DNA of 64,000 nt from Escherichia coli (GTDB lineage Bacteria; Pseudomonadota; Gammaproteobacteria; Enterobacterales; Enterobacteriaceae), in assembly GCF_003790525.1 (NCBI RefSeq), contig NZ_CP033635.1; one strand, 5' to 3'. Positions 59,434-60,433 of this stretch are shown piece by piece. Position 1 is the stretch's first letter, and each line of letters opens with the position of its first letter. Both the position numbers and the translations under genes were made by a program. The notes beneath the pieces are model-generated. The model was not told where the DNA came from and searched no databases. It saw only the letters and a list, made by a program, of their open reading frames with translations.

Positions 59434-59619
59434 TTAATCTTAAGGCAGATCTAACAAGGATATTGTTCTTCGATCTGCCTCTGCTACCCTTCCCGATGTC
59501 CTACCCTTACGCACAAAATCCCCTGACGCATAAATCGAGAAAAATGTATCGTACTCGAGGCAACTCTCACTTTTTCACACCAAATTAAAGTTTTGATCGC
59601 AATTACTTGAAATAAGCGT

Positions 59620-59640
59620 AATGGTTACTATAGTAAACAT
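59620..59640. promoter_or_regulatory. Palindromic putative operator upstream of the toxin-antitoxin pair
   Basis: Perfect 10-bp palindrome TACTATAGTA within GGTTACTATAGTAAACATTACC, about 25 bp upstream of the toxin start codon; approximate. Confidence 0.35.
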
Positions 59641-59658
59641 TACCACAAGGATGGATGT

Positions 59659-60045
59659 ATGGGTGTGTATAAGGCAAGACGATTCAGCCAAAGCACGAAA
59701 AAACTTGGTATTCACGATAAAGTTCTCATGGCTGCCGCTGAAGAAGTGATGCAGGGCATATGGGAGGCTGATTTAGGTAGCGGTGTCATCAAAAAACGTT
59801 TACCCCTCCAACAAGGAAAGAGTGGTGGAGCCAGAACAATTATCTTTTTTAAATCAGCAAATCATGTGTTTTTTTATGATGGTTGGTCCAAGAGTGGTCT
59901 AAGCAGTAAAGGAACCAAAGAAATCGAAGATGATGAACTGGCGGCCTACAAAAAAATGGCAAATGCATTTCTGGCCTTTAGCAATAAGCAAATAGAGGAT
60001 TTGATCGAAACTGGCTTTTTGATTGAGGTGAAAAATGAGCGATAA
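59659..60045 (+). CDS. Putative type II toxin, RelE/HigB (gp49-like) family (128 aa)
   Basis: Small ORF with SD AAGGATGG; motif QQGKSGGARTIIFFKSANHVFFYDGWSKS typical of gp49/HigB-like toxins; 11-bp overlap with downstream HTH gene; absent from the K-12 rimO-dgcI intergenic region as I remember it. Confidence 0.65.
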   Translation: MGVYKARRFSQSTKKLGIHDKVLMAAAEEVMQGIWEADLGSGVIKKRLPLQQGKSGGARTIIFFKSANHVFFYDGWSKSGLSSKGTKEIEDDELAAYKKMANAFLAFSNKQIEDLIETGFLIEVKNER

Positions 60046-60364
60046 ATTACAAATGATGCTGGAAGATGCAAAGGAACTGAATGCACTGGGCCTGATGTCT
60101 GATAGTGAAGTTGATGCCATTGCCGTCATGGTCAAAGCTCGTGAAGTCAGCGCCCGTATAGCCAAAGTCAAATCAATGACGGGTGAAGAGATCAAAGCCA
60201 TCCGCACCCGATACGGCATGTCACAATCCGTGCTGGCACATACAATGGGAATGTCAAAAGAAAGTGTCTCGAAATGGGAACGTAATGAAATAAAACCGAG
60301 CGGCCCGGCATTACGTATTTTGAATACATTGGCAATAAAAGGGCCGGAAGTTTTTGCAAAGTAA
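60035..60364 (+). CDS. Putative HTH (XRE/Cro-type) antitoxin, HigA-like (109 aa)
   Basis: C-terminal XRE-type HTH IKAIRTRYGMSQSVLAHTMGMSKESVSKWERNEIKPSGPALRIL; translationally coupled to the upstream toxin-like gene. Confidence 0.65.
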   Translation: MSDKLQMMLEDAKELNALGLMSDSEVDAIAVMVKAREVSARIAKVKSMTGEEIKAIRTRYGMSQSVLAHTMGMSKESVSKWERNEIKPSGPALRILNTLAIKGPEVFAK

Positions 60365-60433
60365 AATGTTTGCAAATGATTTACCACATTCATTAGTACC
60401 CCTTGATTAAGGGGTACTAACACTATTCTAATT

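Follow-up and report, generated by a model that had tools for sequence, protein, structure and literature searches.

A pair of small overlapping genes lies between rimO and dgcI in the Escherichia coli chromosome segment analysed here (contig NZ_CP033635.1 of assembly GCF_003790525.1; the whole 64,000-nucleotide stretch is referred to as the window). This pair probably forms (about 0.8) a chromosomal type II toxin-antitoxin operon of the HigBA2 kind, in which a PF06296 toxin precedes a HigA2/YiaG-like antitoxin. The family itself is already known, with structural and biochemical characterisation, and the locus has already been labelled by automatic annotation. In all sampled genomes, the Prokaryotic Genome Annotation Pipeline gives gene 1 the name 'type II toxin-antitoxin system RelE/ParE family toxin', and gene 2 is called a helix-turn-helix (HTH) protein in all sampled rows save the poor BS-01 assembly. 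What is added here is the precise family (HigB-2/PF06296), the identification of Coxiella ToxP as the nearest tested relative and a well-defined candidate operator, together with the finding of the same minimal cassette in the same chromosomal neighbourhood of different genera, under strong purifying selection.

The rimO-dgcI spacer is 1,000 bp long (59434-60433), between the end of rimO at 59433 and that of the convergent dgcI at 60434, and this kilobase is 100% identical to the one of E. coli SMS-3-5 (NC_010498.1). The initial annotation had described two overlapping small genes of 128 and 109 codons in a gap that is gene-free in K-12. Both open reading frames are found on the + strand, at 59659..60045 (128 aa) and 60035..60364 (109 aa); they share 11 bp (60035-60045). 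The distance from dgcI (b0834) to rimO (b0835) in K-12 MG1655 is indeed a gene-free 46 bp. The toxin-first arrangement with an HTH antitoxin recurs in five other lineages, and the overlap of the two genes is also seen in Kluyvera, UBA5654 and Xenorhabdus. The features of the spacer are the following:

59434..59602, + strand: allele-specific spacer that follows the stop codon of rimO (no DNA homology to other genera before 59603)
59603..60365, + strand: cassette common to other genera by blastn (promoter, operator, toxin gene, antitoxin gene)
59607..59634, + strand: sigma-70-like promoter (consensus scan, 10/12 matches)
59618..59643, no strand assigned: putative operator, a 26-bp near-palindrome (inverted-repeat search, motif scans, cross-genus conservation)
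59659..60045, + strand: toxin gene, HigB-2/PF06296, RelE/ParE superfamily (AAGGA ribosome-binding site at 59647-59651)
60025..60030, + strand: antitoxin ribosome-binding site GAGGTG, within the 3' end of the toxin gene (sequence reading)
60035..60364, + strand: antitoxin gene, 109 aa (HTH_3 match, PDB matches, AntitoxP identity, fused model)
60393..60420, no strand assigned: hairpin (12-bp stem, 4-nt loop) separating the convergent antitoxin and dgcI genes (inverted-repeat search, folding)

The toxin assignment is carried by PF06296 ('RelE'). A hidden Markov model search, as the initial annotation had advised for gene 1, gave an end-to-end match to this family, residues 1-124 covering all 120 model positions (E 7.9e-33, score 113.7), and all 71 toxin homologues found carry the same domain, save two fragments. 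A gp49/HigB-like motif of the RelE superfamily had been read in GKSGGARTIIFF and FFYDGW, which correspond to residues 53-64 and 71-76 of the gene 1 product. The superfamily part of this reading stood, through PF06296, a profile match to HigB-2 and the predicted fold. The gp49/classical HigB part had to be abandoned, as none of gp49 (PF05973), HigB-like (PF05015) and HigB (PF09907) is among the Pfam hits of the toxin at E ≤ 10. The Acinetobacter baumannii HigBA2 was likewise discarded as a relative, its toxin being of the gp49-domain type. The sequence of Vibrio cholerae HigB-2 (also written HigB2), recovered from the PDB alignment, scores best against PF06296, and this toxin has been placed in PF_RelE/PF06296 by Gerdes 2025 (PMC11980606, Table 1 and PF_RelE section), where the family is described as mediating ribosome-dependent mRNA degradation, with a toxin-then-antitoxin gene order. 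A profile of 92 family members, built from a search yielding 950 representatives at E ≤ 0.001, matches the solved HigB-2 chains with an E value of 2.5e-9.

Structure prediction, which had also been advised, gave a RelE-type fold. The AlphaFold2 (AF2) model of the toxin, computed on the family alignment, has a mean predicted local distance difference test (pLDDT) value of 90.9 and a predicted template modelling score (pTM) of 0.87, and its N-terminal helices pack on an antiparallel beta-sheet, as is the rule in the RelE/ParE (BECR) fold. The best Foldseek matches to this model are two HigB2 chains, 5jaa_D and 5ja8_C (probability 1.0, template modelling score 0.52-0.63). The active site of HigB2 has been delineated by mutagenesis and involves Arg51, Arg64, Tyr82 and Lys84, with Lys49 also counted (PMC5416850; PMC10098735). 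In the profile alignment, HigB2 K49, R51, R64, Y82 and K84 face K45, R47, R59, W76 and K78 of the E. coli toxin. Two of these residues, K45 and R59, are invariant among the 92 family members, while R47 and K78 are at least 90% conserved. At the position of Tyr82 the whole family keeps an aromatic residue, which is Phe in the consensus and Trp (W76) in the E. coli toxin.

The C-terminal part of the second gene product (about residues 47-100) is, as judged from its sequence, an XRE/Cro HTH domain of the HigA2/YiaG-like type. Such a domain had been noted initially, and it was recovered as an HTH_3 match (E 3.4e-9) at residues 53-94. Among PDB structures, residues 47-106 match P22 C2 and V. cholerae HigA-2 (residues 38-96 of the latter). 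The HigBA-type order proposed at the outset, toxin first and HTH antitoxin second, is thus borne out by the gene order together with these two matches. The same HTH also resembles MqsA among solved structures, and only sub-threshold matches were obtained in NCBIfam, to MqsA-family, NadS and YiaG-type models. Residues 1-46 are conserved among orthologues, with the consensus LxxMLEDAxELNALGLM, and this N-terminal segment of about 46 residues is presumed to be the toxin-binding part. When the toxin, a 30-residue Gly/Ser linker and the antitoxin were modelled as one AF2 chain, the pTM reached 0.79; the linker appeared disordered (pLDDT < 50) and the antitoxin was predicted to form helices at residues 2-17 and 23-43 (pLDDT 87-98). 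This pTM value would fit a confident packing of the toxin against the antitoxin, and is suggestive only.

Upstream of the toxin gene, a promoter-like site combines a -35 hexamer TTGAAA (59607-59612), a 16-nt spacer and a -10 hexamer TATAGT (59629-59634). In orthologous upstream regions, read by eye, a TTGxxx hexamer also precedes TATAGT/TATAAT by 16-17 nt. The perfect palindrome previously noted in this promoter region, TACTATAGTA, is found at 59626-59635. It forms the core of a 12-bp perfect palindrome (59625-59636), itself included in a 26-bp palindrome with one mismatch, GTAATGGTTACTATAGTAAACATTAC (59618-59643), which has the -10 box at its centre and may be seen as a pair of GTAA-N3-TTAC sites on either side of TATA. 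The corresponding 26-mer pattern, GTAA-N3-TTACTATAGTAA-N3-TTAC, occurs once in the window versus 0 times in 100 shuffles. The core TACTATA(G/A)TA and at least the right-hand GTAA-N3-TTAC site are conserved in six lineages (E. coli, K. georgiana, K. sichuanensis, UBA5654, Xenorhabdus and Pantoea), among which the toxin identity drops to about 55%. In the other lineages the motif lies 33-36 nt before the likely start codon, and the remaining upstream DNA is unrelated. A conserved palindrome over the -10 box is what would be expected of an operator bound by the antitoxin in a self-repressing operon. Since the operator motif was not found in the 64-kb window outside the module's own promoter, no other regulatory target is visible nearby. 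As a side observation, one other exact GTAA-N3-TTAC match is present in the window, a lone GTAAAAATTAC at 11992-12002, which may be due to chance, with about 0.65 matches expected per window.

The GAGGTG sequence inside the toxin gene and the 11-bp overlap suggest translational coupling of the two genes. Beyond the antitoxin gene, the perfect hairpin reported initially is real and slightly longer than described, with perfect 12-bp arms (60393-60404 and 60409-60420) and a 4-nt loop. Folded in a 79-nt context, the + strand reaches a minimum free energy of -19.3 kcal/mol (z -3.9), against -24.8 kcal/mol (z -4.6) for the - strand. It probably serves as a bidirectional end or stabiliser of the convergent transcripts, and a hairpin of different sequence is seen, by eye, at the same post-antitoxin position in K. 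georgiana. On the other side of the cassette, the spacer 59434..59602 has no homologue in K-12 or in the Kluyvera and UBA5654 cassettes. It includes a hairpin with a 9-bp stem (59443-59480; minimum free energy -16.2 kcal/mol, z -2.6), a possible rimO terminator. No known RNA was detected by Rfam in 59350-60500.

The closest experimentally studied homologue found is the ToxP toxin (CBUA0028) of the Coxiella burnetii plasmid QpH1, which is 36% identical to the E. coli toxin over its full length (E 5e-24), its partner AntitoxP (CBUA0027) being 33% identical to the E. coli antitoxin (E 2e-12). Both pairs are toxin-first overlapping operons, and the active-site positions that align carry Lys, Arg, Arg and Lys in both toxins. 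Cell-free translation is blocked by ToxP, which is also toxic, AntitoxP binds both ToxP and the toxP promoter, and the K79E mutation of ToxP abolishes toxicity in E. coli (PMC10098735). This K79 residue aligns with K78 of the E. coli toxin. At the position of HigB2 Tyr82, ToxP has a Tyr whereas the E. coli toxin has a Trp. The settings also differ, as ToxP/AntitoxP is plasmid-borne and acts in plasmid maintenance, whereas the E. coli pair resides on the chromosome, flanked by core genes.

V. cholerae HigB-2/HigA-2 (PDB 5JAA, 5JA8, 5MJE) shares PF06296 and the toxin-first order with the E. coli pair, and its toxin is the best structural match to the E. coli toxin model. The antitoxin HTH occupies a similar position in both systems (47-100 in E. 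coli, 38-91 in HigA2), each time after an N-terminal toxin-binding segment, which is presumed to be so in E. coli. Local differences are nevertheless observed. The E. coli toxin is 18 residues longer than HigB2, and two helices and a short strand are predicted at its C-terminus, where HigB2 has the single helix alpha3 (PMC5416850). The two helices predicted at the N-terminus of the E. coli antitoxin contrast with the disordered HigA2 segment, which folds into a helix and a strand. In addition, HigBA2 is located in the V. cholerae superintegron, unlike the E. coli pair.

The relE-yiaG modules, described computationally as a PF_RelE toxin gene upstream of one coding for a YiaG-like HTH protein (Gerdes 2025, PMC11980606 section 22), resemble the E. 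coli pair in having a PF06296 toxin followed by an HTH protein with two N-terminal helices and a HigA2-like HTH. However, this subfamily is defined by the extended disordered N-termini of its toxins, and the E. coli toxin has no such extension. The YiaG protein of K-12 is 27% identical to the E. coli antitoxin, in the HTH only. The reverse gene order, a RelE-superfamily fold and an HTH antitoxin are also shared with classical HigBA (Rts1 HigB, PF05015), K-12 HigB (PF09907) and the gp49-type HigB (PF05973).

By analogy with V. cholerae HigBA2 and Coxiella ToxP/AntitoxP, the E. coli pair would encode a toxic protein that cleaves mRNA in a ribosome-dependent manner and an antitoxin that neutralises it by direct binding, and would repress its own expression. 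The single promoter at 59607-59634 would give rise to a bicistronic mRNA. Its first product, the RelE-fold toxin, would by homology enter the ribosomal A site and cleave mRNA under translation, which would bring protein synthesis to a stop. Translation of gene 2 would be coupled to that of gene 1, and the N-terminal helices of its product would bind and neutralise the toxin. A dimer of the C-terminal HTH could sit on the palindromic operator over the -10 box and repress the operon, with the toxin probably acting as a co-repressor. Should the antitoxin be lost faster than the toxin, either by proteolysis or through loss of the locus, free toxin would cause growth arrest.

Several observations weigh against this assignment to the HigBA2 kind. 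The searchable literature, queried with the neighbour gene names, RefSeq protein accessions and COG4737/DUF1044, yielded no study of this E. coli pair, and no NCBIfam or PADLOC model matches the toxin. When the toxin was used as a single phmmer query against the PDB sequences, no solved structure was matched, so that the link to HigB-2 needs a profile or fold comparison, and the structural alignment with HigB-2 shows a sequence identity of 11-15% only. The catalytic Tyr82 of HigB2 is replaced in the E. coli toxin. The antitoxin N-terminus is predicted as helix-helix, whereas it is a helix and a beta-strand in HigA2 (PMC5416850), and the details of neutralisation may therefore differ. Lastly, no clear U-run accompanies the terminal hairpin on either strand. 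A PHROGs scan of the toxin returned a single weak family of unknown function.

A domesticated or attenuated module, whose toxin would no longer poison translation and whose two products would act as a transcription factor and its partner in a host function, is favoured by the Trp at the Tyr82 position, and a search of the literature returned no toxicity data. It would also suit a pair that is chromosomal, lies between core genes, occupies the same neighbourhood in several genera and has no mobile-element context in E. coli. However, the four basic residues of the active site are conserved, including two that are invariant across 92 members, strong purifying selection acts on the toxin gene itself (dN/dS, the nonsynonymous to synonymous rate ratio, 0.05-0.08), and the operator motif occurs within the 64-kb window at the module's own promoter only; this alternative appears improbable. 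As the ParE fold is the same, the toxin might instead be a ParE-like poison of DNA gyrase rather than an mRNA endonuclease. This looks very improbable, given that HigB-2, a ribosome-dependent RNase, comes out on top in both the fold and the profile comparisons, that the RelE-type catalytic Lys and Arg residues are conserved, that cell-free translation is blocked by ToxP, the nearest homologue with experimental data (PMC10098735), and that PF06296 is listed as an mRNA-degrading family (PMC11980606).

A role in phage defence through abortive infection, rather than in stress response or locus stabilisation, is compatible with the HigBA2-type operon proposed above. RelE/ParE toxins do occur in defence contexts (PMC11980606), the Pantoea homologue adjoins SMODS and S_4TM genes and an integrase, and the antitoxin HTH weakly resembles HTH proteins in PADLOC. 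On the other hand, the toxin has no matching PADLOC model, and the E. coli neighbours are housekeeping and cyclic di-GMP (c-di-GMP) genes rather than a defence island; phage defence is a minor possibility.

Concerning selection, the SMS-3-5 and O157:H7 toxin genes differ by five synonymous changes and one conservative substitution (T86S), and the antitoxin genes by three synonymous changes, the antitoxin protein being identical. Comparison with the UBA5654 orthologues gives a dN/dS of 0.08 (toxin) and 0.07 (antitoxin). Both genes are, from these comparisons, under strong purifying selection, with dN/dS values of about 0.05-0.08.

The initial annotation had also called the module inserted, and had recommended comparing the rimO-dgcI region across strains. 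This comparison revealed the cassette allele in 1,138 of 5,426 complete E. coli genomes (21%), O157:H7 included, and the K-12-type short spacer in 4,283 of them (79%). RelE-domain toxins (Pfam 'RelE') were reported to be absent from phylogroups A, B1 and C in a published survey (PMC10790755), which agrees with the lack of the cassette in K-12. The claim of an insertion was not substantiated. Neither target-site duplications nor terminal inverted or flanking repeats nor an attC/att site were found at the cassette junctions, nor any recombinase open reading frame in the neighbourhood, and orthologues occupy the same neighbourhood elsewhere. Shared sequence between the cassette and K-12 alleles is limited to TAATTAAT at the left junction and TACTGCC at the right one. 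The K-12 spacer (L001:4665-4710) consists of a GC-rich hairpin with a 13-bp stem, which has a minimum free energy of -23.5 kcal/mol on one strand and -20.3 kcal/mol on the other and probably terminates transcription in both directions. No cassette remnant was detected in it by alignment, as 45 of 500 shuffles scored as well. With no detectable homology between them, the two alleles thus replace each other.

Divergence data and gene neighbourhoods provide further clues. Between O157:H7 (phylogroup E) and SMS-3-5, the identity is 98.5-99.1% for the cassette, 99.1% for rimO and 97.8% for dgcI; the cassette divergence is similar to that of the flanking core genes, which indicates a long vertical residence. 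In other genera, blastn detects 75% identity to the UBA5654 loci (L013/L016) across 59603-60365 and, on almost the same interval, 69-70% to the loci of Kluyvera, with unaligned flanks in both cases. The orthologous cassettes of K. georgiana, K. sichuanensis and UBA5654 all abut gsiD, and have on their far side either bssR or rimO followed by one extra gene; in E. coli, pdeI-dgcI alone separates the cassette from gsiD. The Kluyvera and UBA5654 orthologues are 67-76% identical to the E. coli proteins at the amino-acid level, between their neighbours bssR (46-52%) and gsiD (87-89%).

It is quite possible, at somewhat below even odds, that the cassette was recently inserted by horizontal transfer into a rimO-dgcI spacer that was ancestrally empty. 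This view is favoured by the short spacer of 79% of the E. coli genomes, including strains in which the junction is only 97.9% identical to that of K-12, by the lower GC content of the cassette (0.39-0.47, compared with 0.50-0.55 for rimO), and by a toxin family that is common on plasmids (209 records). Mobility is also suggested by the more distant Xenorhabdus and Pantoea homologues, found beside Tn3-type transposase and resolvase genes or an integrase, by the cross-genus DNA homology confined to 59603-60365, from the promoter through the stop codon, and by the few close relatives (4 loci) returned by a peptide-pattern scan of species. Against it stand the junctions without direct repeats, terminal inverted repeats or recombinase genes, where alleles swap without homology. 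The O157:H7 and SMS-3-5 cassettes differ by 0.9-1.5%, to be compared with 0.9% for rimO and 2.2% for dgcI, orthologues 67-76% identical lie beside gsiD, with bssR or rimO opposite, in Kluyvera and UBA5654, and dgcI and pdeI are of similarly low GC content. Because of the missing mobile scars, the flank-like divergence and the orthologues in the same neighbourhood, ancestral presence followed by loss from K-12 is at least as plausible as insertion, and the cassette can safely be described as an old presence/absence polymorphism of E. coli. A stronger version, in which the cassette, rather than a drifting selfish element, would be an ancient, vertically kept resident of the rimO/bssR-gsiD neighbourhood in several enterobacterial genera, retained by strong purifying selection for a benefit to the host and maintained in E. 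coli as a long-lived, balanced presence/absence polymorphism, is unlikely. If true, possible roles would include phage exclusion or a control tied to bssR, dgcI and pdeI, i.e., to biofilm and c-di-GMP.

With the pair read as a HigBA2-type operon, the field changes little, since one more RelE-superfamily module is added to the strain-variable toxin-antitoxin set of E. coli (O157:H7, extraintestinal lineages). The same-neighbourhood cassette does offer a natural case for asking whether chromosomal toxin-antitoxin modules are vertically inherited and kept by selection, and K-12, whose site is naturally empty, is a convenient host in which to test toxicity and phage defence.

Some additional observations concern the base composition and the distribution of the family. 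The GC content is 0.39-0.48 for the cassette, dgcI and pdeI (59600-62450) versus 0.50-0.55 for rimO (58100-59450); the whole block beyond rimO is lower in GC, beyond the two small genes alone. In UBA5654 (L013:2738-3688, and L016), a gene of the SMI1_KNR4/SUKH family lies between rimO and the cassette, where E. coli has a 225-bp non-coding stretch. This family is often associated with immunity proteins. The Pantoea homologue (L012:1360-3296 and 7345-8097) adjoins SMODS and S_4TM (CBASS-like) genes, a CdiI-type gene and a phage integrase gene, and this setting is a defence or mobile island, unlike that of E. coli. The start codon of the Pantoea toxin was apparently called about 44 codons too far upstream.

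The species scan relied on exact 8-residue peptide patterns in one genome per species, which detects close relatives only and does not amount to evidence of absence from E. albertii, E. fergusonii or Salmonella. It returned only 4 loci, namely K. sichuanensis, UBA5654, a distant Gimesia metagenome-assembled genome (36%) and one contig 100% identical to E. coli. The latter (L015, JAIJJM010000872.1, 1,198 bp), which is binned in a metagenome-assembled genome of 'Collinsella sp.' and codes for a toxin 100% identical to that of E. coli, is almost certainly mis-binned E. coli DNA. An apparently degraded allele in E. coli BS-01 (L003, NZ_CP172816.1), with a 122-aa 'toxin' ending in a poly-Phe/Lys tail and a missing antitoxin, was rejected as a pseudogene and looks like the product of a low-quality assembly, which has many homopolymer-like substitutions, small deletions and an internal stop in pdeI. 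The 209 plasmid records of the toxin family come from Piscirickettsia, Sinorhizobium, Coxiella, Providencia, Moellerella and others, and are accompanied by a single phage, Escherichia phage PhiR12_3 (PV340552.1:4340-4657), in which a 37%-identical toxin homologue is annotated as a hypothetical protein.

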